From: Escherichia coli
Lineage (GTDB): Bacteria; Pseudomonadota; Gammaproteobacteria; Enterobacterales; Enterobacteriaceae
Assembly (NCBI RefSeq): GCF_003991155.1
Contig: NZ_CP031295.1
Length of the DNA: 64,000 bases
Reading direction: 5' to 3' (one strand)
The position numbers and the translations under genes are program-made. Positions 10,435 through 62,869 of this stretch are shown one piece after another. A model generated the notes under the pieces. That model had not been told where the DNA came from and made no database searches. It worked only from the letters and a program-made list of their open reading frames with translations. Each line of letters starts with the position of its first letter. Position 1 is the first letter of the stretch.

Positions 10435-10679
10435 GCTGCAGGCAGCCAGCTGTCGTCCTGCCAGATTTCTTCCAGCAGAGACAGGATACGTTCTTTATCC
10501 TTGTCGTTGCGGGCTCCTGTGACAGATACAGACGGGGCGCTGCCCTGGTCAATACGCAGCCAGATTTCCGGGTAGTGTGGTTTCAGACGTTGTTCGATTT
10601 CATTCTGTAGCGCCTGAAGTGTGCCTGATTTGAGGTTTTTTGTGCTCTGGCGGTCGAAAAGAATTTCAATGCGGATCAT
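10431..10679 (-). CDS. impC: ImpC-like small protein
   Basis: First gene of the three-gene operon; start placed at MIRIEILFDRQ (ATG 10677-10679). Confidence 0.7.
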   Translation of the reverse strand: MIRIEILFDRQSTKNLKSGTLQALQNEIEQRLKPHYPEIWLRIDQGSAPSVSVTGARNDKDKERILSLLEEIWQDDSWLPAA

Positions 10680-10702
10680 GTTCTCATCTCCCTTTTTTAT
10701 TG

Positions 10703-10718
10703 CTGTATGTATATACAG
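10703..10718. promoter_or_regulatory. LexA box (SOS operator) upstream of impC
   Basis: CTGTATGTATATACAG fits the CTGT-N8-ACAG consensus, about 25 bp upstream of the impC start. Confidence 0.75.
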
Positions 10719-11072
10719 TATTCTAATAACTGAATCCACACACAGTCAAATGTCATTATTGTGACTAAAAAACGCTCAATTCTCTGAGAGTGTGGCTGTA
10801 TGCCTGCTGTGGACTGCTGTGTCCAGCTTATCCACAGCATTTTGCGCACGGTTCTGTGAATAAAATACCTGGTTACCCAGGCCGTGCCGGCACGTTAACC
10901 GGGCTGCATCCGATGCAAGTGTGTCGCTGTCGCCGGCCTCCTCACCCGGTCACGTTTCGTCGTTCCTCCTCCACGCGCTGCGGCTTCGGGGCCGCACCTG
11001 CATTCGTATGCGGTCGCCCGGTTACAGGTGCGGCACGGCCTGATGGAGGCCGCATGTGAGAGGAGAATTCCC

Positions 11073-11999
11073 ATGCCAAACTGGTGCTCGAATCGTATGC
11101 ATTTTTCTGGTGAACCGGCACAGATTGCTGAGATTAAACGACTGGCCAGCGGTGCCGTCACACCGCTTTATCGCCGCGCCACAAATGAAGGTATTCAGCT
11201 GTTTCTGGCCGGAAGTGCCGGACTTCTGCAGACCACTGAAGATGTGCAGTTTGAACCGTGCCCCGGACTGACGGATGCCGGACGTGGTGTTGTATCGCCG
11301 GAGAATATCGCGTTCACCCGCTGGCTGACACACCTGCAGAACGGTGTACTGCTGGATGAGCAAAACTGCCTGATGCTGCATGAACTCTGGCTGCAGAGTG
11401 GTACTGGCCAGCGTCGCTGGGAAGGATTACCGGATGAGGTCAGGGAAACCATCACCGTGCATTTCACCGCAAAAAGAGGTGACTGGTGTGGCTTCTGGAG
11501 TAACGAGGATGTATCGGTGTGGTGGAACCGTCTGTGTGACAATGTACTGCCGGAAAAAACCATGCCGTTTGACCTGCTGACGGTTCTGCCCACCCGCCTG
11601 GATGTTGAAGTGAATGGCTTTAACGGTGGTGTTCTGAACGGTGTTCCTTCTGCGTATCACTGGTATACGGAACAGTATGGCGTGAAGTGGCCTGTGGGGT
11701 ATGAGGTGAATATCAGCCGTCAGGGAGAAAACTTCATTCAAGTGGATTTCGACACGCCGTGGTGTCAGCCGGAAAGCAACGTTGTTGCAGAATTAAGCCG
11801 CCGTTTCGGCTGCACGCTGGAGCACTGGTACGCCGAACAGGGCTGCAATTTCTGTGGCTGGCAGCGATATGAGCGTGGAGAGCTTGTTGATGTGCTGTGG
11901 GGGGAACTGGAATGGTCTTCCCCGACAGATGATGATGAGCTGCCGGAAGTCACCGCGCCGGAGTGGATAGTCGACAAGGTGGCGCATTACGGGGGATGA
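11073..11999 (+). CDS. conserved leading-region protein, Cys/Trp-rich, unknown function (308 aa)
   Basis: ORF with GAGAGGAG RBS; many W and C residues (PNWCSNRMHF, WCGFWSNEDVSVWWNRLC); no enzymatic motif recognised. Confidence 0.65.
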   Translation: MPNWCSNRMHFSGEPAQIAEIKRLASGAVTPLYRRATNEGIQLFLAGSAGLLQTTEDVQFEPCPGLTDAGRGVVSPENIAFTRWLTHLQNGVLLDEQNCLMLHELWLQSGTGQRRWEGLPDEVRETITVHFTAKRGDWCGFWSNEDVSVWWNRLCDNVLPEKTMPFDLLTVLPTRLDVEVNGFNGGVLNGVPSAYHWYTEQYGVKWPVGYEVNISRQGENFIQVDFDTPWCQPESNVVAELSRRFGCTLEHWYAEQGCNFCGWQRYERGELVDVLWGELEWSSPTDDDELPEVTAPEWIVDKVAHYGG

Positions 12000-12012
12000 A
12001 GTATGACGGAGA

Positions 12013-12038
12013 CGGGCGGGCAACCGCCCGTTTCTTTT
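12013..12038 (+). terminator. rho-independent terminator
   Basis: GGGCGGGCAACCGCCCG hairpin followed by TTTCTTTT. Confidence 0.6.
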
Positions 12039-12383
12039 CCGACAAAGGATGTCGCCGTGCTCCTCTTTTTACTGCGCCGGCTGACGCGGCGCGGCAGGAA
12101 CGCTGCCTGTGGTCAGTGTCCCGCGTCCGGCGGGCACGGGACGGGCGCTTTTACTGCTCCCGGCTGGCACCGGTGACAGTGTACGCCAGCCTGTCGCCCT
12201 TTTCTGATGAACGCCCTTCAAGCCGCTTTCGCGGCATATTCTCGCCGTCAAAAAGACGACGGCTGCGATATTCCACGGTCGGCCTGACCCGTTACCGGAC
12301 GCGGTGAACAGCCCACAGGCAGCGGGGAACGGGCACCACAGGGGTGCCCTCCCGGTGCCCTCTGTAAGAGAAGGAGCGTTGTT

Positions 12384-13067
12384 ATGTCCCGTTTTGTCCT
12401 TGGTAACTGCATCGATGTTATGACGCGTATCCCTGATAACGCCATTGATTTCATATTAACTGACCCGCCATATCTCGTCGGTTTTCGTGACCGTTCCGGG
12501 CGCACCATCGCCGGCGATAAAACCGATGAATGGCTGCAACCGGCCTGTAATGAAATGTACCGCGTACTCAAAAAAGACGCGCTGATGGTGAGCTTCTACG
12601 GCTGGAACCGCGTCGATCGCTTTATGGCCGCCTGGAAAAATGCGGGATTCAGCGTTGTTGGTCACCTGGTCTTCACCAAAAACTACACATCGAAGGCCGC
12701 ATATGTGGGCTATCGCCACGAATGCGCCTACATCCTGGCAAAAGGCCGTCCACGTCTGCCACAAAACCCGCTGCCGGACGTGCTGGGCTGGAAATATTCT
12801 GGCAATCGTCATCACCCGACGGAAAAGCCCGTTACCAGCCTGCAACCGCTGATTGAGAGCTTCACACACCCGAACGCAATTGTGCTGGACCCGTTTGCAG
12901 GCAGCGGCTCAACCTGCGTCGCCGCCCTCCAGTCCGGACGCCGGTATATCGGTATCGAGCTGCTTGAGCAGTATCACCGTGCCGGGCAGCAACGCCTTGC
13001 CGCCGTGCAACGGGCCATGCAGCAGGGGGCCGCGAATGATGACTGGTTTATGCCGGAGGCTGCGTAA
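12384..13067 (+). CDS. orphan DNA methyltransferase, beta-class (motif IV before motif I)
   Basis: DPPY motif (ILTDPPYLVGF) near the N-terminus and SAM-binding FAGSGST near the C-terminus; no adjacent restriction gene. Confidence 0.85.
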   Translation: MSRFVLGNCIDVMTRIPDNAIDFILTDPPYLVGFRDRSGRTIAGDKTDEWLQPACNEMYRVLKKDALMVSFYGWNRVDRFMAAWKNAGFSVVGHLVFTKNYTSKAAYVGYRHECAYILAKGRPRLPQNPLPDVLGWKYSGNRHHPTEKPVTSLQPLIESFTHPNAIVLDPFAGSGSTCVAALQSGRRYIGIELLEQYHRAGQQRLAAVQRAMQQGAANDDWFMPEAA

Positions 13068-13289
13068 ATGAACTATGCCGGACACGAAAAACTTCGCGCC
13101 GACGTGGCGGAGGTGGCCAACACCATGTGTGACCTTCGGGCCAGGCTGAACGATATGGAGCATCGCTGTCGCTTTGATTCCGATGTGCTTGTTGAACGCC
13201 TGACACGCCAGACGCTGTATCGCGCCAATCGCCTGTTTATGGAGGCGTATACCGAAATTCTGGAACTGGATTCCTGCTTCAAAGATTGA
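13068..13289 (+). CDS. hypothetical protein (73 aa)
   Basis: ATG overlaps the methyltransferase stop (translational coupling); no motif recognised. Confidence 0.5.
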   Translation: MNYAGHEKLRADVAEVANTMCDLRARLNDMEHRCRFDSDVLVERLTRQTLYRANRLFMEAYTEILELDSCFKD

Positions 13290-13302
13290 GAAGGAGACGA
13301 GA

Positions 13303-13737
13303 ATGTACGGAACATGCGAAACGCTATGCCGGGAGCTGGCAGCAAAGTATCCGGGAGACGCGCCGCTGATGCTGGTTATCTGGTCCCCGGAAGAGATTCA
13401 GGCACTGGCTGACGGTATGGAAATTTCTCTGACCGATCATGAAATCAGGACCGTCCTGGCGCGCATGGAGGACATCCCGGAAGACCAGCGGACTGAATCC
13501 GGTATTTCTTCCGCCGCGGTGATGGAGATTATCAGCAACGTGAGCGAAAACCGCCAGGTGACCGTCCCTGCTGAACTGCTGGCGTCCCTGATTCAGACCG
13601 CTGAACAGGCACTGTGGAAACGTGAGTGGGCCGCCCGTGATAACGGCCTCGCCGTCCCGGAATGCGTTACCCGCCGTCAGGCGGTGGTTAATCAGGCCCG
13701 CACCCTGCTGAAAAACAACACACACGAAAACAACTGA
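13303..13737 (+). CDS. conserved leading-region protein (144 aa), paralog of 15453..15875
   Basis: Shares N-terminal MY-x-T, SLTD-x-E and RQVTVPA motifs with the 140-aa protein at 15453; GGAG RBS. Confidence 0.65.
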
Positions 13738-13787
13738 TGTTATCGCCGCCTGCCCTGCGGGCGGCGATACAGGGAGAACGCTTAATC

Positions 13788-14564
13788 ATGAACGAAAACA
13801 GCACGCTGAACGCACTGATTTGTCGTCACGCCCGTAACCTGCTGCTGGCGCAGGGCTGGCCGGAAGAGACGGATGTTGACCAGCGAAATCCGAACTATCC
13901 GGGCTGGATCAGCATTTACGTGCGGCTGGATGCGCCCCGGCTGGCGACGTTACTTATCAACCGTCACGGCGGCGTACTGCCGCCGCTCCTGGCCTCCGCC
14001 ATTCAGAGACTGACCGGAACCGGGGCGGAACTGGTACTGTCCGGCAGTCAGTGGCAGTCGCTGCCGGTACTTCCGGCAGACGGAACGCAGGTGTCTTTCC
14101 CGTATGCCGGAGAATGGCTGACCGAAGACGAAATCAGGGCTGTTCTTGATGCGGTGCACGATGCGGTACGAAGCATCTGTTACCAGGTGGCAGAAGATGC
14201 GCGGCGTATCCGTGCGGCGCTGACCACCACCGGTCAGACGTTGCTGACCCGCCAGACGCGCCGCTTTCGCCTGGTCGTGAAGGAAAGCGATCACCCCTGC
14301 TGGCTCGATGAAGATGACGAAAACCTGCCCGTGGTGCTCGATGCCATCGTGAACCGGGGAGCACGTTTTTCGTCGGTGGAAATGTATCTGGTCAGTGAGT
14401 GTATTGAGCATATCCTGTCCAGTGGGCTGGCCTGCGATGTGCTGCGTATACCGGATGAACCGCCCCGCCGCTGGTTTGACCGTGGTGTTCTGCGGGAGGT
14501 GGTCCGGGAAGCCCGGACCGAAATCCGCAGCATGGCGGATGCCCTGGCAAAAATCCGGAAATGA
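13788..14564 (+). CDS. conserved leading-region protein (258 aa), unknown function
   Basis: Long ORF; start placed at MNENSTLN (ATG 13788) just downstream of a hairpin; no motif recognised. Confidence 0.6.
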
Positions 14565-14571
14565 TGACGAT

Positions 14572-14596
14572 GGCGGGGAAAATCCCCGCCTTTTTC
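14572..14596 (+). terminator. rho-independent terminator
   Basis: GGCGGGGAAAATCCCCGCC hairpin followed by TTTTT. Confidence 0.7.
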
Positions 14597-14980
14597 CTGC
14601 CGGTCCCCGGACAGAGCACAAAGGAAGTCGCCGCCGGCTCCGCTTTACCCGGCCATGCAGGGCATGGCCTTGTGGTTTTTCAGTTATGTGGCCTCAGCGT
14701 CGTGTGCGGGCTGTGCCGTGCCTCCATCTTAGCCGGGCTGGCGTTGATGCAAGGGTACGCTTCGCCGCTGCGGTCACCCGGTCCCTCCTTCCCGTCTGCC
14801 GTGATTTTCCGGTCGTTCACCCGCTCAGATTTCGCGGTCTCACCCTGCAACTCCCGTCAGCCGTGTGCGTCAGGCTGCGGCTTCCCTTGCGCCCCTGCAT
14901 CCCCGCCTGTTCGCCCGGCTTTTATGGAGGCACGGCACCGCCCGGTGTCGCGGAATATGTGAACAACGGAGGAAAACATC

Positions 14981-15406
14981 ATGCAATATGCGAAACCTGT
15001 CACTCTGAATGTTGAAGAGTGCGACCGTCTCTCCTTTCTGCCGTATCTGTTTGGCAACGATTTTCTGTATGCCGAGGCGTATGTGTACGCGCTGGCGCAA
15101 AAAATGATGCCGGAATATCAGGGAGGCTTCTGGCACTTCATCCGCCTACCGGACGGTGGCGGTTACATGATGCCGGATGGCGACCGTTTCCACATGGTGA
15201 ACGGTGCAAACTGGTTTGACCGTACCGTGAGTGCTGATGCCGCAGGCATCATCCTGACCTCCCTTGTGATTAACCGCCAGTTGTGGCTGTACCACGACAG
15301 CGGGGATGCAGGACTGACCCAGCTTTACCGGATGCGCGATGCGCAGTTGTGGCGTCACATCGAATTTCACCCCGAATGCAACGCGATTTACGCGGCTCTG
15401 GACTGA
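14981..15406 (+). CDS. klcA: KlcA/ArdB-family antirestriction protein
   Basis: 141 aa; [12 protein letters not shown]...[17 protein letters not shown]...[10 protein letters not shown] resembles KlcA/ArdB as recalled. Confidence 0.8.
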
Positions 15407-16224: not shown

Positions 16225-16870
16225 TGTTCCTGATGTTGTTGTTCCTTTATCTGCTGCTCTGATTCTGACTACTGCAGTGTTGTTCTGTCTGCCGGGCGCA
16301 CCTTCGGCTCCCGGCTGCCTGGCGGCATCCGGTCGTCAGGCCCGACTCCGACAGGCAGCTGCTGGCGCACCCGCCAGTCTCCGCCGAACCCGCTGGCGCG
16401 GTTTCGGGCTGTCGCTACGGTCCGATGCGTGAAAACCCCGGGCTTGCAGCGACCGTTCCGGTCGCGCCACCCTTGTCGCGCCGTGGCCTGCGCTCCCGGC
16501 ATCCCGGCAAAAGGCCGCCGGGATGTAAGGGGCAACGCCGTTTCGCGCACGCGCTCTCCGTCGTTGCGGCGGGTCCCTGCTCATTGCCTGCCGGTGCCAC
16601 ACACCCGTATGAGTCCCTGTCGCCGGGGGCTGATACAGCCACAACCTGCCGCACTGACTGTCCAGGGTAAATGAACAGCCCACAAAATTTTTTACCCAAA
16701 ACCCGGTAAAAAATTTTGCGTTCTGCCCAGGACAGGTGCGTCAGGCCGTGGCAGTGATGCCCCTTGCGGCGAAGGTTCTCAAACGGGTGAAGTTCATACC
16801 ACAGGGAATACAGCAGCAGGTTCCCGCGAAACGTCAAAACCGCGGCTCCCGAAACTCAACGGGTGATGTT
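16225..16870 (+). repeat. GC-rich structured repeat, copy 1 (Frpo/ssi-like single-strand promoter candidate)
   Basis: About 650 bp near-identical to 19510-20185 and 24965-25608; internal palindrome AAAATTTTTTACC...GGTAAAAAATTTT at 16684-16718. Confidence 0.7.
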
Positions 16871-17097
16871 CTTTAAAAATCAGGATTTATTTCAGACTCC
16901 GGCAATACGCATTTATGTGTTCTGTCAGTCATCCGGCTGGCAGGTAATGAGAACGCAGGAACAGAAGGAGGAAAACACCGGAGAACGTCAGACGCAGATA
17001 TGAAAAAAGCAGGTCAGGGACCTGCTTAATCCACACCGCAGAGACTGCACGAACAGTCTTTACGGTTTCATTAATTAACGTCATAAGAGGCTAAATT

Positions 17098-17328
17098 ATG
17101 ACAGTAAGTATTGTTTCACCTTCCGCAGCGGCTGTAAAGCCCCGCCGTCATCCCCGTTTCAGACGCGAAGACATCCCCGCGCCGGAAATTGACCCCGTGC
17201 TGAAAGCCTTCGGGCGACACATTGCCCGGAGTTTTCACCGGGGGCGTGGTGTACACATCCCCGCCATGAAAAACACGGCCTTCGGGCAGGTGCTCCGCAC
17301 ACTCGAACTGAAACGCGCTTTTAACTGA
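17098..17328 (+). CDS. small basic hypothetical protein (76 aa)
   Basis: First ORF downstream of repeat copy 1; AGAGG RBS. Confidence 0.5.
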   Translation: MTVSIVSPSAAAVKPRRHPRFRREDIPAPEIDPVLKAFGRHIARSFHRGRGVHIPAMKNTAFGQVLRTLELKRAFN

Positions 17329-18788: not shown

Positions 18789-19352
18789 ATGCACAGTCAG
18801 TTAAGAGAACGTATCCGGCTGATGCGCGCAAGGCTGGATAACGCCGCGCCGGTTGCTGAAATCCGGGCTGAATCTCAGCTTTTTGTGACTCCTGCCCCGG
18901 TCTGTGATCGCCTGGTGATGCTGGCGGAGATCAGCAACCGTGATCACATTCTGGAACCCTCTGCCGGCACCGGGGCCATACTGCGGGCGATTCGGGATAC
19001 CGCGCCGGGGGCCATGTGTGATGCGGTGGAAATCAACAGCGGGCTGGTCCGGTATCTGCGGGAAAATTTTAACGGTGTCAGGGTTCAGTGTGGCGACTTC
19101 ATGGAATGGCAGCCGGTGCAGTATTACAGCCGGGTTATCATGAATCCGCCGTTCAGCCACGGGCAGGATATCCGGCATATCCTGCGGGCCTTTTCCCTGT
19201 TGCGTCCGGGGGGCGTGCTGGTCGCCGTCTGTCTCAACGGACCACGCCAGCAGGAGAAGCTGTTACCGTTTTCTGACGTCCGCGAGGAGCTGCCGCGCGG
19301 CACGTTTGCTTATACCGATGTCCCGACGATGATTATTCGTCTGCGTGCCTGA
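18789..19352 (+). CDS. small orphan DNA methyltransferase, gamma-like order (motif I before motif IV)
   Basis: SAM-binding LEPSAGTGAIL followed by VIMNPPFSHGQD (NPPF); only 187 aa. Confidence 0.75.
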   Translation: MHSQLRERIRLMRARLDNAAPVAEIRAESQLFVTPAPVCDRLVMLAEISNRDHILEPSAGTGAILRAIRDTAPGAMCDAVEINSGLVRYLRENFNGVRVQCGDFMEWQPVQYYSRVIMNPPFSHGQDIRHILRAFSLLRPGGVLVAVCLNGPRQQEKLLPFSDVREELPRGTFAYTDVPTMIIRLRA

Positions 19353-19509
19353 AGACGCCGGGCAGGCGGGAGGATAAATGCCCGTCTGCCCGCGCCGGGA
19401 AAAGACCGCGCGCCGGTGGCGCTGAAAGGGGCCGCGCTCACGCGCCGCCCCTTTCATTACGCGGACGTTCTGATGGGGGCTTCTGTTTCTTCATGCCTGT
19501 CATTTGTCT

Positions 19510-20185
19510 GTTACTGATGTTGTTGTTCCTGCTACTGTTCTTCTTTTTCCTGCTGCTCTGATTCTGACTACTGCAGTGTTGTCCTGTCTGCCGGGCGCAC
19601 CTTCGGCTCCCGGCTGCCTGGCGGCATCCGGTCGTCAGGCCCGACTCCGACAGGCAGCTGCTGGCGCACCTGCCAGTCTCCGCCGAACCCGCTGGCGCGG
19701 TTTCGGGCTGTCGCTACGGTCCGATGCGTGAAAACCCCTGGCTTGCAGCGACCGTTCCGGTCGCGCCGCCTCTGTCGCGCCGTGGCCTGCGCTCCTGGCA
19801 TCCCGGCAAAAGACCGCCGGGATGTAAGGGGCAACGCCGTTTCGCAAACCGCGCTTCACGTCGTTGCGGCGGGTCCCTGCCCGTTGTTCTGTCCGGTGCC
19901 ATTCACCTGTTTAAGCCCCTGTCGCCGGGGGCAAAGACAGCCACAACCGTCTCCGCCAGTCCAGGGGTGAAATGTACATCCCGCAAAACTTTTTGCCCAA
20001 AAGCAGGCAAAAACTTTTGCGGGATGTACATTTCACCCCCGGACAGTCGTTTCCGTCCGTGGCAGTGATGCCCCTTGCGGCGAAGGTTCTCAAAAAGGTG
20101 ATGGTGAATACCGGAGGGAACAAAAGGCAGGTCCCCGCAAAACGTCAAAACCGCGGCTCCCGAAACTCAAAAGATGATGGGGGCT
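19510..20185 (+). repeat. GC-rich structured repeat, copy 2 (Frpo/ssi-like), upstream of ssb
   Basis: Near-identical to copies 1 and 3; long hairpin 19962-20041 (GGGGTGAAATGTACATCCCGCAAAACTTTTTGCC ... GGCAAAAACTTTTGCGGGATGTACATTTCACCCC) with a single central mismatch. Confidence 0.7.
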
Positions 20186-20212
20186 GAAAACATCAACAGA
20201 AGGAGGCACATC

Positions 20213-24708: not shown

Positions 24709-24964
24709 CAACCTGGAGGCGGGCGCAGGCCCGCCTTTTCAGGACTGATGCTGGTCTGACTACTGAAGCGCCTTTATAAAGGGGCTGCTGGTTCGCCGGT
24801 AGCCCCTTTCTCCTTGCTGATGTTGTACGGGCATGAACAACCTGACTTCAGGAAGGTCGTTTCCCTTCAGGAACGGGGATGAACGCGCGCCTGCGGCGCC
24901 CGTTCTTTTCCCCCGCCTTCTCTGGTTATGGCCTGTCAGAAATCACATCACCTTCCCTGTGATT

Positions 24965-25608
24965 ATTCTCTTTTTCTTCCTGCTCTGATTCTGACTACTG
25001 CAGTGTTGTCCTGTCTGCCGGGCGTACCTTCGGCTCCCGGCTGCCTGGCGGCATCCGGTCGTCAGGCCCGACTCCGACAGGCAGCTGCTGGCGCACCTGC
25101 CAGTCTCCGCCGAACCCGCTGGCGCGGTTTCGGGCTGTCGCTACGGTCCGATGCGTGAAAACCCCTGGCTTGCAGCGACCGTTCCGGTCGCGCCGCCTCT
25201 GTCGCGCCGTGACCTGCGCTCCCGGCATCCCGGCAAAAGGCGCCGGGATGTAAGGCGCAACGCCGTTTCGCAAACCGCGCTTCACGTCGTTGCGGCGGGT
25301 CCCTGCCCGTTGTTGTGTCCGGTGCCATTCACCAGTTTAAGCCCCTGTCGCCGGGGGCATAGACAGCCACAACCGTCTCCGCCAGTCCAGGGGTGAAATG
25401 CACATCCCGCAAAACTTTTTGCCCAGAAGCAGGCAAAAACTTTTGCGGTCTGCCCCCGGACAGTCGTTTCCGGCCGTGGCAGTGATGCCCCATGCGGCGA
25501 AGGTTCTCAAACAGGTGATGGTGAATACCGGAGGGAACAAAAGGCAGGTCCCCGCAAAACGTCAAAACCGCGGCTCCCGAAACTCAACAGATGATGGGGG
25601 CTGAAAAC
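24965..25608 (+). repeat. GC-rich structured repeat, copy 3 (Frpo/ssi-like)
   Basis: Near-identical to copy 2; palindrome GCAAAACTTTTTGCC...GGCAAAAACTTTTGC at 25407-25448. Confidence 0.7.
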
Positions 25609-26855: not shown

Positions 26856-26866
26856 TAATATAAGTA

Positions 26867-26894
26867 AAGCCCCGAAAAAATTTTCGGGGCTTTA
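26867..26894. terminator. bidirectional hairpin terminator
   Basis: AAAGCCCCGAAAAAATTTTCGGGGCTTT perfect palindrome between convergent genes. Confidence 0.65.
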
Positions 26895-27151
26895 CTTATA
26901 TTATCATTTTTCGGCATTGCTGTGTCGTCTGATATACCTCAATTTCATCAACCGGATTTCCGGTTGTCTGTAAATATTGTGCCCGCGAAAAATGGTCTGG
27001 CAGGAGGCTGCACAGTTACCGGGTATATATAAGATGGGTTCCCGCTTCGCGGGGCTTCGGCCAGTCAGTATTGTCACTCATATGATATTTTTGTGTGTGG
27101 CCTTCCATGCCGCTTTTGCGGCATAACCGGTATCTGACAATGTCTGTAAGA

Positions 27152-47019: not shown

Positions 47020-49838
47020 ATGAAGTTTATGTGATTGCCGGTGGTGAGTGGTTGCGGAATAACCTGAACGCCATTGCCGCCTTTATGGGAACCAGGACGT
47101 GGGATTCCATTGAAAAAATTGCGCTCACATTGTCTGTTCTCGCGGTGGCCGTAATGTGGGTACAGCGGCACAACGTGATGGATTTGCTGGGCTGGGTGGC
47201 CGTATTTGTGCTTATCAGCCTGCTGGTTAATGTCCGCACATCGGTGCAGATTATTGATAACAGTGACCTGGTCAAAGTTCACCGGGTGGATAATGTGCCG
47301 GTCGGACTGGCGATGCCACTTTCACTGACGACCCGTATCGGGCATGCAATGGTGGCCAGTTACGAGATGATCTTCACGCAACCGGACAGTGTCACCTACA
47401 GCAAAACGGGGATGCTGTTTGGCGCAGAACTGGTATCAAAAAGCACCGACTTTTTGTCCCGCAATCCGGAAATCGCCAATCTTTTCCAGGATTATGTGCA
47501 GAACTGTGTTATGGGGGATATTTACCTGAACCACAAATACACGCTGGAGGAGCTGATGGCCTCCGCTGATCCCTACACGCTGATTTTTTCCCGCCCCAGC
47601 CCGCTGCGGGGCGTTTATGACAGCAATAATAATTTCGTAACCTGTAAGGACGCGTCGGTTTCGCTGAAAGACAAGCTGAATCTGGACACACAGAGTGGCG
47701 GAAAAACCTGGCATTATTATGCCCAGCAGCTATTTGGTGGACGCCCTGATCCTAACCTGCTGTTCAGTACGCTGATTGGCGACAGTTACAGTTACTTCTA
47801 TGGCTCAAGTAAATCAGCCAGCCAGATCATCCGCCAGAATGTCACCATCAATGCGCTGAAGGAGGGGATCACCAGTTATGCCGCACGTAATGGTGATTCG
47901 GCCAGCCTGGTGAATCTGGCCACCACGTCATCGATGGAGAAACAACGTCTGGCACATGTCTCCATCGGTCATGTGGCGATGCGGACACTGCCCATGACGC
48001 AGACCATCCTGACGGGGATCGCCATCGGTATTTTCCCGCTCCTGGTACTGGCGGCTGTATTCAACAAACTGACGCTGTCTGTCCTGAAAGGTTATGTGTT
48101 TGCCCTGATGTGGCTGCAGTCATGGCCACTCTTGTACGCCATTCTGAACAGTGCCATGACATTTTATGCGAAACAGAATGGTGCGCCGGTGGTGCTCTCT
48201 GAAATTTCACAGATACAACTGAAATACTCCGATCTGGCTTCCACTGCCGGGTATCTTTCCATGATGATCCCGCCATTATCCTGGATGATGGTCAGGGGGC
48301 TTGGGGCCGGATTTTCCAGTGTGTACAGCCATTTCGCTTCCTCTGCTATCAGCCCGACTGCCAGTGCGGCAGGTAGTGTGGTTGACGGTAATTACTCCTA
48401 CGGCAACATGCAGACGGAAAACGTGAACGGCTTCAGCTGGAGCACCAACAGCACCACGTCGTTTGGTCAGATGATGTACCAGACCGGCAGTGGCGCAACC
48501 GCCACACAGACCCGTGACGGTAATATGGTGATGGATGCAAGCGGAGCGATGTCCCGTTTACCGGTCGGTATCAATGCAACGCGTCAGATTGCAGTGGCAC
48601 AACAGGAAATGGCCCGGGAGGCGTCGAACAGAGCAGAAAGTGCCCTGCATGGTTTCAGCAGCAGTATTGCCAGTGCCTGGAACACGCTCAGTCAGTTTGG
48701 TTCTAACCGGGGGAGCAGTGACTCTGTCACCAGTGGTGCTGACAGTACGATGAGTGCACAGGACTCCATGATGGCCAGCCGTATGCGCAGTGCAGTGGAA
48801 AGCTATGCGAAGGCGCATAATATCAGTAATGAGCAGGCGACTCAGGAACTGGCATCCAGAAGTACGAGAGCTTCTGCCGGGATGTATGGAGATGCTCATG
48901 CTGAATGGGGGGTTAAACCTAAAATTCTTGGTGTTGGTGGAGGATTAGGCGTTAGAGGTGGTGGTCGGGCTGGCATTGACTGGAGTGATGATGATGCGCA
49001 TCAGGCCAGCAGTGGTTCACGGGCCAGCTATGATGCTCGTCATGATATTGACGCTAAAGCCAGTAAGGACTTTAAAGAGGCCAGCGATTACTTTACCAGT
49101 CGCAAAGTCAGTGAATCCGGCAGCCATACTGACAATAATGCTGATTCCCGGGTGGATCAACTGTCTGCAGCCCTGAATTCAGCGAAACAGAGTTACGACC
49201 AGTACACGACGAATATGACCCGCAGCCATGAATATGCTGAAATGGCATCCCGTACTGAAAGCATGAGTGGGCAGATGAGCGAAGATTTGTCGCAACAGTT
49301 TGCACAGTATGTGATGAAACACGCACCGCAGGATGCCGAAGCTATTCTGACAAATACCAGTTCGCCGGAGATTGCAGAACGCCGTCGGGCAATGGCCTGG
49401 TCTTTTGTGCAGGAACAGATACAGCCTGGTGTTGATAATGCCTGGCGGGAATCCCGTGGCGATATTGGTAAAGGAATGGAGAGCGTACCTTCGGGTGGAG
49501 GCAGTCAGGATATTATTGCTGACCATCAGGGACATCAGGCCATTATTGAGCAAAGAACGCAGGACAGTAATATCCGTAATGATGTAAAACATCAGGTTGA
49601 TAATATGGTCACAGAATATAAAGGGAATATAGGTGATACTCAGAACAGCATACGTGGCGAGGAAAATATTGTAAGAGGACAGTATTCTGAACTGCAGAAT
49701 CACCATAAAACAGAGGCATTATCTCAGAATAATAAATATAATGAAGAAAAGTCGGCTCAGGAAAGAATGCCCGGGGCTGACAGTCCACAGGAACTGATGA
49801 AAAGGGCAAAGGAGTATCAGGATAAGTATAAGCAATAA
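47016..49838 (+). CDS. traG: TraG (mating-pair stabilisation / entry exclusion partner)
   Basis: 940 aa; F order. Confidence 0.95.
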   Translation: MNEVYVIAGGEWLRNNLNAIAAFMGTRTWDSIEKIALTLSVLAVAVMWVQRHNVMDLLGWVAVFVLISLLVNVRTSVQIIDNSDLVKVHRVDNVPVGLAMPLSLTTRIGHAMVASYEMIFTQPDSVTYSKTGMLFGAELVSKSTDFLSRNPEIANLFQDYVQNCVMGDIYLNHKYTLEELMASADPYTLIFSRPSPLRGVYDSNNNFVTCKDASVSLKDKLNLDTQSGGKTWHYYAQQLFGGRPDPNLLFSTLIGDSYSYFYGSSKSASQIIRQNVTINALKEGITSYAARNGDSASLVNLATTSSMEKQRLAHVSIGHVAMRTLPMTQTILTGIAIGIFPLLVLAAVFNKLTLSVLKGYVFALMWLQSWPLLYAILNSAMTFYAKQNGAPVVLSEISQIQLKYSDLASTAGYLSMMIPPLSWMMVRGLGAGFSSVYSHFASSAISPTASAAGSVVDGNYSYGNMQTENVNGFSWSTNSTTSFGQMMYQTGSGATATQTRDGNMVMDASGAMSRLPVGINATRQIAVAQQEMAREASNRAESALHGFSSSIASAWNTLSQFGSNRGSSDSVTSGADSTMSAQDSMMASRMRSAVESYAKAHNISNEQATQELASRSTRASAGMYGDAHAEWGVKPKILGVGGGLGVRGGGRAGIDWSDDDAHQASSGSRASYDARHDIDAKASKDFKEASDYFTSRKVSESGSHTDNNADSRVDQLSAALNSAKQSYDQYTTNMTRSHEYAEMASRTESMSGQMSEDLSQQFAQYVMKHAPQDAEAILTNTSSPEIAERRRAMAWSFVQEQIQPGVDNAWRESRGDIGKGMESVPSGGGSQDIIADHQGHQAIIEQRTQDSNIRNDVKHQVDNMVTEYKGNIGDTQNSIRGEENIVRGQYSELQNHHKTEALSQNNKYNEEKSAQERMPGADSPQELMKRAKEYQDKYKQ

Positions 49839-51366: not shown

Positions 51367-53507
51367 ATGAGTTTTAACGCAAAGGATATGACCCAGGGCG
51401 GTCAGATTGCGTCCATGCGTATCCGCATGTTCAGTCAGATCGCCAATATCATACTTTACTGCCTGTTTATTTTTTTCTGGATCCTAGTTGGTCTGGTTTT
51501 ATGGGTAAAAATAAGCTGGCAGACGTTTGTGAATGGCTGCATTTACTGGTGGTGCACCACGCTGGAAGGCATGCGGGATTTAATCAGGTCCCAGCCGGTC
51601 TATGAGATCCAGTATTACGGCAAAACCTTCCGGATGAACGCGGCTCAGGTACTGCATGATAAATATATGATCTGGTGCGGAGAGCAGCTATGGTCCGCAT
51701 TCGTTCTGGCCACAGTTGTGGCACTGGTTATTGCCTGATTACCTTCTTTGTTGTCTCACGGATTCTGGGGCGTCAGGGTAAACAACAGAGCGAAAATGAA
51801 GTCACAGGTGGTCGTCAGCTGACAGACAATCCGAAAGACGTTGCCCGGATGCTGAAAAAGACGGCAAGGACTCCGATATACGGATTGGCGACCTGCCGAT
51901 TATCCGGGATTCCGAAATCAGAACTTCTGTCTGCACGGCACGGTCGGGGCCGGTAAGTCGGAAGTTATCCGTCGTCTGGCCAACTACGCCCGTCAGCGTG
52001 GAGATATGGTGGTGATTTATGACCGTTCAGGGAATTTGTTAAAAGTTACTATGATCCCTCCATCGATAAAATCCTGAATCCGCTGGATGCCCGCTGTGCC
52101 GCACGGGATTTGTGGAAGAGTGCCTGACACAGCCAGATTTTGATAATACCGCAAATACTCTGATCCCGATGGGGACAAAAGAGGACCCGTTCTGGCAGGG
52201 TTCAGGACGTACCATTTTTGCGGAAGCGGCATACCTGATGCGTAATGACCCCAACCGCAGCTACAGCAAACTGGTGGACACACTGCTTTCCATCAAAATT
52301 GAAAAGCTGCGTACCTTCCTGCGTAATTCACCGGCGGCCAACCTGGTGGAAGAGAAAATCGAGAAAACGGCCATATCCATCCGTGCTGTGCTGACCAACT
52401 ACGTGAAAGCCATCCGTTACCTGCAGGGGATTGAGCATAACGGTGAGTCTTTACCATCCGTGACTGGATGCGTGGTGTCCGGAAGATCAGAAAAACGGCT
52501 GGCTGTTTATCTCGTCGAATGCCGACACCCATGCCTCCCTGAAGCCGGTGATCTCCATGTGGCTGTCCATTGCCATTCGTGGTCTGCTGGCAATGGGAGA
52601 AAACCGTAACCGTCGTGTGTGGTTTTCTGTGATGAGCTACCCACGTTACACAAACTGCCGGACTGGTGGAGATCCTGCCGGAAGCCCGTAAGTTCGGTGG
52701 CTGTTATGTGTTTGGTATCCAGTCTATGCCCAGCTGGAAGATATCTACGGTGAAAGCGGCTGCCACGCTGTTTGACGTCATGAACACCCGTGCCTTTTTC
52801 GTTCTCCCAGCCATAAGATTGCAGAGTTCGCTGCCGGTGAGATTGGTGAGAAAGAGCACCTGAAAGCCAGCGAGCAGTATTCCTACGGTGCTGATCCGGT
52901 ACGTGACGGGGTATCGACCGGTAAGGATATGGAGCGTCAGACGCTGGTCAGTTATTCCGACATTCAGTCTCTGCCGGATCTGACCTGTTATGTCACCCTG
53001 CCCGGACCGTATCCGGCAGTAAAACTCTCCCTGAAATATCAGACACGACCGAAGGTCGCTCCGGAGTTTATTCCGCGTGACATCAACCCGGAAATGGAGA
53101 ACCGTCTGAGTGCCGTACTTGCCGCAAGGGAAGCAGAAGGTCGTCAGATGGCCAGCCTCTTCGAACCGGATGTCCCGGAGGTTGTTTCCGGAGAAGACGT
53201 GACTCAGGCTGAACAGCCGCAACAGCCGGTGTCTCCTGCCATCAACGATAAGAAGTCAGATGCAGGTGTGAATGTTCCGGCAGGGGGGATCGAGCAGGAG
53301 CTGAAAATGAAACCGGAAGAAGAGATGGAACAGCAACTGCCACCCGGGATCAGTGAATCCGGTGAAGTGGTGGATATGGCCGTTTATGAGGCATGGCAAC
53401 GGGAGCAGAATCCGGATATCCAGCAGAAGATGCAGCGTCGTGAAGAGGTGAACATCAATGTGCACCGGGAGCGCGGGGAGGATGTTGAGCCGGGAGATGA
53501 TTTCTGA
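51367..53507 (+). pseudogene. traD: traD (coupling protein) fragmented into at least five reading-frame segments
   Basis: TraD-like peptide runs in ORFs 51367-51738, 51675-51956, 52112-52609, 52666-52863 and 52929-53507, each in a different frame; Walker [12 protein letters not shown] is in yet another frame near 51935. Confidence 0.8.
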
Positions 53508-53515
53508 TGAACAGG

Positions 53516-53914
53516 TCAGCTCCAGTCTTCAATTCTCAGACCGTCCACACGTTCAAATTCCCGGGTGTTATTAGTCACAATAATCAGTCCCCGACTGCGG
53601 GCATGACCTGCGATCATTTGATCAAATGGCCCGACAGGGCGTCCCTGACGGGCAAGTTCTGCTCTTATCTGGCCGCTGTGTGTGGCTGCGGCAGCGTCGT
53701 AATCCAGAACATCAATGCGGGAAACAAATCCCTCGATCACAGCGAGATTACGTTCAGGCATCTGGCTTTTTTCTGCACCATATATCAGCTCCATCAGGGT
53801 GACCGAACTGATACACATTCTCCCCTGGTTCAGGTTAAAACGCTCCCTGACGCTGGCGGGTTTGTTCTTTATCGTGAAAATGCAGATGTTGGTATCGAGC
53901 ATAAACTTCAGCAT
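53516..53914 (-). CDS. vapC: VapC PIN-domain toxin
   Basis: MLKFMLDTNICIF PIN N-terminus; 132 aa. Confidence 0.85.
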   Translation of the reverse strand: MLKFMLDTNICIFTIKNKPASVRERFNLNQGRMCISSVTLMELIYGAEKSQMPERNLAVIEGFVSRIDVLDYDAAAATHSGQIRAELARQGRPVGPFDQMIAGHARSRGLIIVTNNTREFERVDGLRIEDWS

Positions 53915-54141
53915 CAGAATGACTCCCTTTCCTGCATGCCGGGCTGTTCCCTGTTATCCATAAAATCGGCGCTGACGTTGTGTCCGTCGAACCATTCGTC
54001 CCATGTCTCTCCGGCTGGCGTAATGATTCTGGTTCGTCCGACAGCAATCACTTCAACGCGTTTTACGTTTTCCGGCAATGCAACCGCTTTTGGCAGTCTG
54101 ACCGCCTGGCTGCGGTTGCTGAAAAATACGGTGGTTTCCAT
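53914..54141 (-). CDS. vapB: VapB antitoxin
   Basis: 75-aa ORF immediately upstream of, and coupled to, vapC. Confidence 0.8.
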   Translation of the reverse strand: METTVFFSNRSQAVRLPKAVALPENVKRVEVIAVGRTRIITPAGETWDEWFDGHNVSADFMDNREQPGMQERESF

Positions 54142-54222
54142 TATTTGCCTCCTTATGTGGATATGTCTTGTGTATATCCATTGTGGGATTGATACCGGGA
54201 TATGTCAAAGGGATATACGTTT

Positions 54223-57200
54223 ATGATGAGTATCGCGCAGGTCAGATCGGCCGGAAGTGCCGGTAACTATTATACCGACAAGGATAATTACTATGTGCTG
54301 GGCAGCATGGGAGAACGCTGGGCCGGCAGGGGGGCTGAACAGCTGGGGCTGCAGGGCAGCGTCGATAAGGATGTTTTTACCCGTCTTCTGGAGGGGAAGC
54401 TGCCGGACGGAGCGGATTTAAGCCGCATGCAGGATGGCAGTAATAAGCATCGTCCCGGCTACGACCTGACCTTCTCCGCCCCCAAAAGTGTCTCCGTGAT
54501 GGCCATGTTAGGCGGTGATAAACGTCTTATTGATGCACATAACCAGGCCGTGGATTTTGCTGTCCGTCAGGTGGAGGCGCTGGCTTCCACACGGGTTATG
54601 ACGGACGGACAGTCAGAAACGGTGCTGACCGGTAATCTGGTGATGGCACTGTTTAACCACGACACCAGTCGCGATCAGGAACCACAGTTACACACACATG
54701 CGGTAGTGGCCAATGTCACGCAGCATAACGGCGAGTGGAAGACATTGAGCAGTGACAAAGTGGGGAAAACGGGGTTCATTGAGAATGTGTACGCTAATCA
54801 GATTGCCTTCGGCAGGCTCTACCGGGAAAAACTGAAAGAGCAGGTTGAGGCGCTAGGCTATGAAACGGAAGTGGTTGGTAAGCACGGTATGTGGGAGATG
54901 CCGGGCGTACCGGTGGAGGCCTTCTCCGGACGCTCACAGGCTATCCGGGAGGCCGTCGGGGAAGACGCCTCGCTGAAATCCCGGGATGTGGCGGCACTGG
55001 ATACGCGAAAATCCAAACAGCACGTCGATCCTGAAGTCAGAATGGCTGAATGGATGCAGACGCTGAAGGAAACCGGGTTCGACATCCGGGCGTATCGTGA
55101 CGCGGCGGACCAACGGGCGGAGACCCGCACGCAGACGCCCGGACCCGCTTCACAGGACGGGCCGGATGTGCAGCAGGCGGTGACACAGGCCATTGCCGGA
55201 TTAAGTGAACGCAAAGTGCAGTTTACGTACACGGACGTGCTGGCCAGAACGGTCGGCATACTGCCGCCGGAAAATGGTGTGATTGAACGGGCACGCGCCG
55301 GTATCGATGAGGCCATCAGCCGTGAGCAGCTTATCCCCCTCGATCGTGAGAAGGGGCTGTTCACGTCCGGGATTCATGTGCTCGATGAGCTGTCAGTCCG
55401 GGCACTCAGTCGTGACATCATGAAACAGAACCGGGTGACCGTACATCCGGAGAAAAGTGTCCCCCGGACGGCCGGTTACAGCGATGCGGTCAGTGTTCTG
55501 GCACAGGATCGCCCGTCGCTGGCTATTGTGTCCGGGCAGGGCGGTGCAGCCGGGCAGCGTGAGCGGGTGGCGGAGCTGGTCATGATGGCCCGGGAGCAGG
55601 GGCGGGAGGTGCAGATTATCGCCGCTGACCGTCGCTCGCAGATGAACCTGAAGCAGGATGAACGGCTGTCCGGTGAGCTGATAACCGGACGTCGTCAGCT
55701 GCAGGAGGGCATGGCCTTCACGCCGGGCAATACTGTTATCGTTGACCAGGGCGAAAAACTCTCCCTGAAAGAGACGTTAACCCTGCTGGACGGTGCCGCA
55801 CGTCATAACGTACAGGTCCTGATAACCGACAGCGGGCAGCGAACCGGTACAGGCAGTGCACTGATGGCCATGAAAGATGCCGGGGTGAACACATATCGCT
55901 GGCAGGGGGGAGAACAGCGGCCGGCCACCATCATCAGTGAACCGGACCGTAATGTCCGCTATGCCCGGCTGGCAGGAGATTTTGCTGCCAGCGTGAAAGC
56001 CGGAGAAGAGAGCGTGGCACAGGTCAGCGGGGTACGGGAACAGGCCATACTGACACAGGCCATTCGCAGTGAGCTGAAAACACAGGGCGTGCTCGGACGC
56101 CCGGAGGTAACCATGACCGCCCTGTCGCCGGTCTGGCTGGACAGCCGGAGCCGTTATCTGCGGGATATGTACCGTCCGGGGATGGTGATGGAGCAGTGGA
56201 ACCCGGAGACACGCAGTCATGACCGCTATGTTATCGACCGGGTGACGGCGCAGAGTAACAGCCTGACCCTGCGGGATGCGCAGGATGAAACGCAGGTGGT
56301 GCGTATTTCCTCCCTGGACAGCAGCTGGTCGCTGTTCCGGCCGGAAAAAATGCCGGTGGCAGACGGCGAGCGACTGAGGGTGACAGGGAAAATTCCCGGA
56401 CTCCGCGTCTCCGGCGGTGACCGCCTGCAGGTGGCATCCGTCAGTGAAGATGCGATGACGGTTGTTGTGCCGGGGCGGGCTGAACCGGCCTCCCTGCCTG
56501 TGAGCGATTCACCATTCATGGCACTGAAGCTGGAGAACGGCTGGGTGGAAACGCCCGGGCATTCCGTCAGCGACAGTGCGAAGGTTTTTGCCTCCGTCAC
56601 ACAGATGGCAATGGACAACGCCACCCTGAACGGTCTGGCCCGCAGCGGTCGTGATGTCCGGCTGTATTCCTCACTGGATGAAACCCGTACTGCGGAAAAA
56701 CTTGCCCGCCATCCCTCCTTTACGGTGGTTTCTGAGCAGATAAAGGCGCGTGCCGGTGAGACATTGCTGGAAACCGCTATCAGTCTGCAGAAAACCGGGC
56801 TTCACACGCCGGCACAGCAGGCTATTCATCTGGCGCTTCCTGTGGTGGAAAGTAAAAACCTGGCCTTCAGCATGGTGGACCTGCTGACAGAGGCGAAGTC
56901 GTTTGCTGCAGAAGGAACCAGTTTTACTGAACTGGGAGGGGAAATCAATGCGCAGATAAAACGCGGTGATTTACTGTATGTGGATGTGGCAAAAGGCTAT
57001 GGCACAGGCCTGCTGGTTTCCCGTGCGTCGTATGAGGCAGAAAAGAGCATTCTTCGCCATATTCTCGAAGGTAAGGAGGCGGTCACGCCACTGATGGAGA
57101 GAGTACCTGGCGAACTCATGGAGAAACTGACATCAGGACAGCGTGCCGCTACCCGCATGATACTGGAAACGTCCGACCGTTTCACGGTGGTGCAGGGCTA

Positions 57201-61976: not shown

Positions 61977-62189
61977 ATGAATGGATTCAGAAACAGTTCA
62001 CGGAACGGTCAGGTCTGGCGTTACCAGCGTGCCGGCGGGCGGGCCGTTATTCTGGAGGTCAGTGGACGCTGGATGGAAGCGGCAGAAGCATGGCGACGGG
62101 CTGCCTGCATAGCTCCCCGGACAGACTGGCAACAGTTTGCCCGGAAAAGGGCTGAACACTGCCACCGGCGCTGCCGGGGAAGGGTGTAA
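61977..62189 (+). CDS. small basic hypothetical protein (70 aa)
   Basis: ORF with AGGGAGG RBS; Arg/Trp-rich; uncertain. Confidence 0.35.
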   Translation: MNGFRNSSRNGQVWRYQRAGGRAVILEVSGRWMEAAEAWRRAACIAPRTDWQQFARKRAEHCHRRCRGRV

Positions 62190-62869
62190 CGAAAAAAGCA
62201 GCCTTCATTACTCCAGGAGTCAGAAGGCTGAAAGGAGTTTATGAGATTTGCTTTTTTTAATATCCGGTCGGGCAGTATGACCGGCCAGTTCTGAGTAGCA
62301 CAGAGTTTTTTCCGTATTAAGTCGCGATTTTATATTTTGTGATTAATTTCACAAAATAAGGTCTTATTCAATGTGTGCTGCGATATTCAGGGGGGCTGAA
62401 ATACAGGTGCCATTTATCTGATATGGAGAATAACATGAGGAAATATATTCCACTGGTATTATTTATCTTTTCATGGCCGGTATTGTCTGCAGATGTTCAC
62501 GGGCAGATTTATGCACCAGACAGAATGAATGTTAATTAGTTTATGAATACAACAGGGGCTGATCAGCAATCACCGGAACATCGTAGCTGACGCGTTCGCA
62601 ATGCTCAGTTGTCCCCCCCGGAAACGGGAAAAAGTAAGTTTTCCCCCGCTCCCGGCGTTTTTGTAACAAAAACAGGCAAATGGGGGTAATAGTCAGCAAC
62701 AGGGAATGTGGTATTATCGCGGCGGGTGTTTGAGCCTTTCTGGTTCAGGCAAGACGCAGGTACCAGAAATGCGAAGACCCCACTCGTTAATCCATTAACT
62801 CGTGAGGTCTGCATGAAGTACCTTAACACTACTGATTGTAGCCTCTTCTTTGCTGAGAGGTCAAAGTTT

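Follow-up and report, generated by a model that had tools for sequence, protein, structure and literature searches.

The closest described systems are the single-stranded DNA (ssDNA) promoters of conjugative plasmid leading regions. Those now termed class 1 (Frpo/ssiD of F, Masai & Arai 1997; Frpo1/2; ssi1-3 of ColIb-P9) are long hairpins of the transferred (T) strand that rebuild a -35 and a -10 box and are active on ssDNA only, and within the leading region they precede anti-defence, SSB and PsiB genes. RNA-seq of pESBL transconjugants with donor elimination identified six induced operons (Wen et al. NAR 2025, PMC12672017). Three of the six promoters are Frpo/ssi-type hairpins (class 1), klcA and ardA each have a hairpin of a new type on their 5' side (class 2), and the methylase M.EcoGIX has yet another type there (class 3). 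The same study places the discovery threshold at -75 kcal/mol, describes start sites mapped by 5'RACE and conservation of classes 2 and 3 in F, and reports induction that occurs in transconjugants only and lasts longer in uvrD recipients. In two preprints, the F copies are named ssp2 and ssp3 and the class 2 copy, ssp2, is a replication roadblock that stalls complementary-strand synthesis until melted by UvrD (bioRxiv 10.64898/2026.01.09.698686), and ssp2 was found independently and named Frpo3 (bioRxiv 10.1101/2025.04.03.647016). Here we analyse three GC-rich segments in the leading region of an Escherichia coli plasmid, within a 64-kb stretch of contig NZ_CP031295.1 (the window), and ask how they compare with these elements.

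The window is an IncF conjugative plasmid. Its IncF markers traM, traJ and FinP lie at ~28 kb, and an Rfam scan of the window returned CopA and two sok RNAs besides FinP and the traJ 5' untranslated region at 28.5 kb. In an annotated record with 99.9% identity, the gene order is dinI-umuDC (minus strand), DUF1281, DNA methylase, DUF1380, antirestriction (klcA), ..., ssb, psiB, hok, transglycosylase and traM. The leading region extends from ~10.7 to 27.8 kb with its genes on the plus strand and oriT at ~27.9 kb, and therefore the minus strand is both the T strand and the template of those genes. The three segments, whose positions and sizes an earlier note on this DNA had given correctly, are 10790-11072 (segment 1, 283 bp), 12039-12383 (segment 2, 345 bp) and 14597-14980 (segment 3, 384 bp), each with a Shine-Dalgarno sequence and an ATG at its 3' end (ATGs at 11073, 12384 and 14981). 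They precede, respectively, a gene of the DUF1281 (YubB/YccB/YfdA) family (11073..11999, plus strand; Pfam PF06924 and PF18406; start at 11097 according to PGAP), an N6_N4 DNA methylase homologous to M.EcoGIX (12384..13067, plus strand) and a KlcA/ArdB antirestriction gene (14981..15406, plus strand; Antirestrict/KlcA), the latter two assigned from the annotated record and Pfam.

The earlier note had described the segments as very GC-rich untranslated leaders that may form a second class of structured promoter elements, unrelated to a 650-bp repeat found elsewhere in the leading region. Their GC contents (61.5%, 64.6% and 64.1% for segments 1 to 3, with hairpin cores of 67-68%) are local maxima against flanking genes of ~54-60%, so that "very" is a mild overstatement. 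The upstream neighbours it named are in place: segment 1 follows the divergent LexA-box promoter of dinI-umuDC (10720-10749, minus strand, promoter scan), segment 2 an intrinsic terminator past the DUF1281 gene (12012..12039, plus strand; ACGGGCGG-GCAA-CCGCCCGT then TTCTTTTC, read directly from the sequence and not listed by the terminator scan), and segment 3 an intrinsic terminator past a 275-aa open reading frame (ORF) (14572-14590, plus strand, terminator scan). A 4.4-kb query across all three matched more than 5000 plasmid records, chiefly from Escherichia, Klebsiella and Salmonella, and each segment is at least 95% conserved across thousands of plasmids; for two of the three, at least 5000 records were returned, and only copies at least 90% identical were among the matches listed.

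We put at about 85% the probability that all three segments are ssDNA promoters of the plasmid leading region, with segment 3 a class 2 element serving klcA, segment 2 a class 3 element serving the methylase, and segment 1 a shortened class 2 paralogue serving DUF1281. For segments 2 and 3 this core finding is already published, and we count it as known for that reason. Segment 3 (minus strand) is 96.9% identical to the region upstream of pESBL klcA, 95.2% to that upstream of pESBL ardA and 95.7% to F ssp2; at 95-97% identity over its whole length, and with the same downstream gene and strand, it is by sequence and literature the same element as the class 2 promoter ssp2/Frpo3. Segment 2 (minus strand) is 96.4% identical to the region upstream of pESBL M.EcoGIX and 96.6% to F, with the same methylase downstream on the same strand and nothing material different; its sequence, its fold and the literature identify it as the class 3 element ssp3. 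Homology, structure, covariation and strand bias were computed here, whereas induction in transconjugants and 5'RACE start sites come from the literature on these 95-97% identical copies. The promoter reading of the earlier note thus rests on mapped elements for segments 2 and 3, while segment 1 lies outside the reported six.

The segments do not belong to class 1. The window holds three class 1 copies within the 650-bp repeat (16225-16880, 19524-20191 and 24951-25608); BLAST of the segments against them gave no significant match, only chance matches of 11-25 nt, and class 1 is less GC-rich (56-58% versus 67-68% for classes 2 and 3). Within the window, segments 1 and 3 also have no similarity to segment 2. 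The suggested second, unrelated class of minus-strand structured promoters is accordingly borne out as to structure, strand and independence from the 650-bp repeat, but it comprises two classes, class 2 (segments 1 and 3) and class 3 (segment 2). "Untranslated leader" likewise fits only the last ~38-65 nt of each segment, which are predicted to be transcribed, the remainder being promoter hairpin.

Folding of the T strand, which the earlier note had proposed as a check together with a search for covariation, supports this arrangement. As ssDNA the minus strands of segments 1, 2 and 3 fold at -70.2, -98.4 and -90.5 kcal/mol (z = -5.0, -6.1 and -3.3 against dinucleotide shuffles, none of which was equally stable), and BLAST of each segment against itself reveals a long internal inverted repeat. 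Repeating the discovery scan of Wen et al. in 300-nt windows with DNA parameters, we obtained -88.6 kcal/mol for segment 2, -75.1 for segment 3, -72.0 for segment 1 and -90 to -108 for the class 1 hairpins. For sequence diversity we collected loci containing the methylase protein, one genome per species, yielding 40 loci from Enterobacterales and Burkholderiales.

A T-strand signature of class 2, CTTG-N11-GCCCGGYTA-N9-CACGGC, found 40 true elements in all, each antisense to its downstream gene (methylase, klcA, ardA or DUF1281). Right arms were located by aligning each arm locally to the sequence that follows it downstream. We then aligned 27 arm pairs, all distinct and each linked through an artificial loop, three candidates of Samuel et al. 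2024 among them. In this alignment 86.9% of cells were paired, compared to 34-42% when the partner columns were slid, and 26 of 44 pairs showed double changes, compared to 8-16; because the test structure was derived from segment 3 the paired percentage is inflated, whereas the double-change counts are not. The observed values were reached by none of 500 shuffles on four of five measures and by 11 of 500 on the count of further pair types. For class 3, homologues at 74-80% identity occur in ten loci, some with a second copy before another gene, and additional copies precede other genes in Citrobacter plasmids. A 17-sequence T-strand alignment gives a consensus with a three-way junction, in which long blocks are invariant, on a long basal stem, together with a small leader hairpin. 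Here 97.4% of cells were paired (33-45% slid) and 14 pairs covaried (0-4 slid), again with none of 500 shuffles reaching the observed values on four of five measures, while the count of further pair types was the same as in shuffles (257 of 500). Covariation, with double changes in 26 of 44 pairs and in 14 pairs respectively, supports both hairpin families. In all 29 class 2 elements and all 17 class 3 elements, moreover, the T strand was the more stable of the two strands.

How such hairpins would act can be proposed from their layout. The minus strand would enter the recipient first, its 5' end leading from oriT, and would be the template for the leading genes. Each segment on that strand would form a long imperfect hairpin in which the gene-proximal arm is continuous with the template of the gene and the distal arm stands in for the non-template strand, read from loop to base. 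The paired arms would rebuild a sigma-70-like promoter with a TTGnnn -35 and a TAnnnT-type -10 in a small mismatch bubble, so that host RNA polymerase could start before a complementary strand exists and anti-restriction genes could be on while the plasmid is single-stranded. Once the DNA is double-stranded, the same positions would present poor hexamers and the promoter would shut off.

The -35 and -10 boxes and start sites that we give for all three segments are predictions from this geometry. Segment 3 folds into a hairpin at 14703..14948 (minus strand; covariance model and fold) that forms all 44 consensus pairs with a 3-nt internal loop at the -10. Its predicted -35 (TTGCAT, 14747-14752) and -10 (TAAGAT, 14726-14731), both on the minus-strand non-template arm, would give TTGCAT-N15-TAAGAT in the ssDNA form, compared to CTGCAT-N19-TTTTAT in the double-stranded form of the template arm (CTGCAT at 14895-14900, a 19-nt spacer and TTTTAT at 14920-14925); transcription is predicted to start at ~14932 on the plus strand, leaving a 49-nt leader. 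Across class 2, TTG is present at the -35 in nearly all elements and TAnnnT at the -10 in all, in the folds of segments 1 and 3 the central part of the -10 falls within an internal loop of 3 nt, and the first T of the -35 frequently stands in a G-T wobble (pair 56:75), as it does in class 3 (pair 106:172). Because TTG and TAnnnT are kept, the -10 sits in an internal loop and the -35 carries a wobble, the class 2 hairpin form would be a better promoter than the duplex.

An ordinary alternative is that double-stranded promoters drive these genes and that the segments are long structured mRNA leaders acting as thermosensors, riboswitches or attenuators. The segments do have a terminator before them and a start codon after them, both of their strands fold well, and the small leader hairpin of segment 2 covaries and would form in RNA too. 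Yet a promoter scan found no plus-strand sigma-70 consensus anywhere in 10600-15100, which also goes against the ordinary sigma-70 promoters that the earlier note had named as the evidence that would count against it, and there is no Rfam match in 10700-15100, neither at gathering thresholds nor at E = 1. The antisense (T) strand folds better in all 46 elements, the covariance model described below strongly favours the minus strand, and an mRNA would have A-C mismatches where the conserved G-T wobbles stand. Together with the induction of homologues in transconjugants only, for longer in uvrD recipients (PMC12672017), these points leave the leader explanation very improbable.

In segment 2 the basal stem is formed by a non-template arm (12101..12140, minus strand; helices 2-4, seven covarying pairs) and, from the consensus structure, a template arm (12288..12324, minus strand). 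The consensus structure leaves the A at position 2 and the T at position 6 of the predicted -10, GACACT (12115-12120, minus strand), unpaired, and relatives read CACACT; in double-stranded form the template arm would offer CTGACC-N17-AACAGC instead (CTGACC at 12284-12289, a 17-nt spacer and AACAGC at 12307-12312). The apical three-way junction (12143..12287, minus strand) consists of hairpin A (12218-12287) and hairpin B (12143-12216) with the invariant block TATGCCGCGAAAGCGGCTTGAAGGGCG, and contains long runs of invariant columns across the 17 sequences. The template strand runs unbroken through the junction, and we therefore hypothesise that, if the helices stack, TTGA of hairpin A (12218-12221) and CC of the basal stem (12139-12140) would rebuild a TTGACC -35 across it. 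Between the basal stem and the Shine-Dalgarno sequence lies the small leader hairpin (12332..12348, plus strand; helix 1, four of six pairs covarying), downstream of a start predicted at ~12319 (plus strand, 65-nt leader).

PGAP annotates a hypothetical protein over this segment (WP_011254640 family, 11996-12307, plus strand), and the segments, or at least segment 2, might accordingly encode small arginine-rich proteins. The ORF, of 103 codons, overlaps the stop codon of DUF1281 as ATGA, and thousands of plasmid records carry its annotation. We nevertheless give this idea almost no credence and treat the ORF as a likely spurious gene call, because its frame differs between F and the window, separated by a 1-nt indel with another start annotated in F, and because divergent homologues at 74-80% identity are open in all three frames with none conserved. 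From plasmid to plasmid, the same conserved DNA block is read in different frames; the ORF also passes through the terminator and has no Pfam match, and conservation of segment 2 tracks base-pairing rather than codons. The view that the segments lack convincing ORFs stands.

Segment 1 is a conserved non-coding module before the DUF1281 gene (10790..11072, minus strand). Homology with F starts exactly at 10790, and the segment is 99.1% identical to pESBL (L004 3138-3473) and 95.8% to F (L002 7570-7858). From its sequence it looks like a short-apex class 2 paralogue: it is 74% identical to segment 3 over 73 nt (within-window BLAST, E = 7e-5) and ~79% identical to class 2 elements of other loci over 71 nt (E = 1e-8), and alignment to class 2 keeps both arms and drops ~40 nt of the apex. 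Arm changes between segments 1 and 3 are compensatory (GGCG:CGCC to GCAT:ATGC; CCTCC:GGAGG to CCG(G)CAC:GTGCGG), and the motifs of the short-apex subfamily, GAAGCCGCAGCGC and CGGGTGAGGA, are present.

We built a class 2 covariance model (R1) from five short-apex elements (two from Erwinia, one from Buttiauxella and two from an insect metagenome), with no IncF or IncI sequence in training. Over the window it returned exactly two matches with E < 0.001, the hairpins of segments 1 and 3, both on the minus strand: 10869-11050 scored 83.3 bits (E = 5e-17) compared to 21 bits on the plus strand, and 14703-14948 scored 82.4 bits compared to 7 bits. Orthologues of segment 1 score on par with the experimentally validated pESBL and F elements (78-82 bits). 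The segment 1 hairpin (10869..11050, minus strand; -50.3 kcal/mol, z = -4.3) is 98.9-100% identical among the window, pESBL (an identical copy), F and two further loci, compared to 94.5-95.3% for the adjacent DUF1281 coding sequence, making it the best-conserved feature of the 4-kb stretch; in pESBL the DUF1281 gene lies at 53471-54397.

Samuel et al. 2024 (Supplementary Table 2) list three candidates of low certainty from an insect gut metagenome, Frpo' 4, Frpo* 1 and Frpo* 3, without linking them to the IncF/IncI region upstream of DUF1281; all three belong to class 2 as divergent members. Frpo* 1 and Frpo* 3 share the short apex of segment 1 and align along its length, though at low identity, and a seven-sequence alignment including them averages 67% column identity. 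Segment 1 agrees with class 2 of pESBL and F in both arms, in the TTGCAT-N15-TAnnnT layout and the apical motifs, and in its strand and its place before a leading-region gene; it differs in its apex (65 nt versus ~128 nt), its -10 (TAACGT versus TAAGAT) and its downstream gene. Its predicted boxes on the minus-strand non-template arm are a -35 TTGCAT (10913..10918) and a -10 TAACGT (10892..10897) in a stretch with some mismatches, opposite TACAGG (11023-11028) on the template arm, giving TTGCAT-N15-TAACGT as ssDNA and CTGCAT-N19-TACAGG as duplex; TAACGT also occurs in an Erwinia element. By geometry, transcription would start at 11035 (plus strand), the A of GGCACGG, a motif shared with segment 3, 7 nt past the -10 equivalent, with a 38-nt leader and GGAG ahead of ATG 11073.

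Segment 1 is therefore a probable additional class 2 member, a modest novelty. We regard as an even call the stronger claim that its hairpin is a seventh, previously undescribed IncF/IncI ssDNA promoter driving DUF1281 (YubB/YfdA) and, more broadly, that classes 2 and 3 are interchangeable cassettes with class 2 reaching into Burkholderiales. We found neither a description of a promoter before DUF1281 nor induction or start-site data for segment 1 in the literature consulted, and its promoter activity is putative. The six mapped pESBL promoters precede ssb, two further genes beyond ardA, klcA, ardA and M.EcoGIX, with segment 1 not among them. Several observations weigh against the claim. All six induced pESBL operons are accounted for without segment 1 although the pESBL hairpin is identical, and for this reason segment 1 may have little or no activity in E. 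coli matings. Its -10 match is the poorest (TAACGT, 3/6), its T-strand advantage is the smallest (-0.8 to -1.9 kcal/mol versus -3 to -14 for the others), and it reaches just -72.0 kcal/mol in the 300-nt scan. Fold energy alone is not decisive in any case, since after adjustment for GC both segments 1 and 3 lie just ~1-1.4 SD below the regional mean. That the segment misses the published -75 filter, and that DUF1281 is also a pseudogene in F, make it plausible that segment 1 was overlooked.

Segment 1 might instead be a genuine class 2-type hairpin that is not a working promoter, either a decaying relic or a structure of the T strand that could pause complementary-strand synthesis as ssp2 does, prime DNA synthesis or mark the leading-region boundary. 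Its absence from the induced operons, its -10 and its strand bias would all fit, as would the known roadblock activity of class 2. In F, moreover, the DUF1281 gene (L002 7856-8778) is frameshifted, falling into two tblastn pieces in different frames, yet the upstream hairpin remains 98.9% identical to that of the window, and this fits a role independent of that gene. A decaying relic, however, would not be the best-conserved feature of the region. In the F preprint, segment 1 is named neither as a single-stranded promoter nor as a roadblock, the reported conversion delay jumps abruptly at ssp2 only, and deletion of ssp2 left the loci upstream of it unaffected. The predicted -35/-10 layout and the Shine-Dalgarno-plus-ATG geometry are exactly as in segment 3. 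Upstream of the methylase in Erwinia and Buttiauxella, no class 2 or 3 element was found other than short-apex TAnCGT forms. DUF1281 itself is T-strand oriented, enriched in leading regions and the 27th largest among leading-region families, and a class 3 copy (L016 2466-2814; L023 2471-2818) precedes its orthologues at two Citrobacter loci (46-47% amino-acid identity). We hold the non-promoter explanation to be a tentative one, to be taken seriously but somewhat doubtful.

The Citrobacter loci also bear on how the promoters are distributed. Upstream of DUF1281 there is a class 2 element here and a class 3 element in Citrobacter, and the methylase is preceded by class 3 in ~17 loci and by class 2 in 13 (L007, L009-L011, L013-L015, L019, L020, L022, L030, L031 and L042, at ~4220-4480 in most). 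Promoter classes have thus been exchanged between orthologous genes, an observation that appears to be new, if modest. Model R1 further returned weaker but significant matches (27-38 bits) downstream of the methylase homologue in Burkholderiales, in Bordetella petrii (L035 6833-7026) and Achromobacter (L034 5805-5987; L039 5837-6019). The Bordetella match carries GAAGCCGCA, GAACGGGTGAG and TTGGAA-N15-TACTGT, the TTGnnn-N15-TAnnnT layout of class 2, which suggests that the class 2 family extends beyond Enterobacterales. Six contigs titled Collinsella, Oscillibacter/Oscillospiraceae metagenome-assembled genomes (MAGs) or Streptomyces morookaense (L005, L008, L014, L028, L032 and L043) carry near-identical enterobacterial plasmid leading regions, probably through contamination or mis-binning.

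Several further structures accompany these elements. At the distal edge of segment 1, a small conserved hairpin at 10809-10846 (TGCTGTGGA...TCCACAGCA then TTTT) forms on either strand and is comparable to a terminator-like hairpin at 14651-14669 in segment 3. Back to back with segment 1, a near-consensus sigma-70 promoter, TTGACT-18-TAGAAT (10698-10749, minus strand), overlaps the LexA box CTGT-N8-ACAG and serves dinI-umuDC. The 5' halves of the 650-bp repeats (16280-16579, 19580-19879 and 25000-25299, minus strand) fold at -87 to -92 kcal/mol per 300 nt, separately from the Frpo-type hairpin of the 3' halves. A fold peak at 19160-19459 was considered as a further promoter hairpin and rejected, as folding of the adjoining intergenic 19340-19530 gave terminator-type hairpins after a class I methyltransferase gene. 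Between the DUF932 and transglycosylase genes, 26856-27151 (minus strand) is homologous to the single-strand initiation signal ssiE of F, whose sequence is given in the supplement of Samuel et al. 2024; its T-strand fold (z = -8.7) is the strongest of the region once its 44% GC is allowed for, and it includes a perfect ~22-bp hairpin at 26856-26903. Rfam also matched four antisense RNAs of plasmid pHK01 on the minus strand: AS-pc01 (17004-17103), inside the leading region directly past the first class 1 repeat, AS-pc02 (62086-62271), AS-traI (57072-57148) and AS-traG (47735-47820).

For segments 2 and 3, these results confirm that this plasmid carries published elements. To those elements our analysis adds covariation-backed structures for both families, a class 2 signature, a calibrated strand-specific class 2 covariance model, a candidate extra promoter before a large uncharacterised leading-region family, and the swapping of promoter classes between orthologous genes. 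Both classes follow a design rule that would account for the shut-off of the promoters as double-stranded DNA: a G-T wobble holds the first T of the predicted -35, and on the non-template arm the key bases of the -10 stay free of pairing. This rule could guide searches for further classes of ssDNA promoter. Such promoters determine the plasmid genes that are expressed in the first minutes following entry, ahead of restriction by the recipient, and hence bear on the establishment of resistance plasmids in new hosts.

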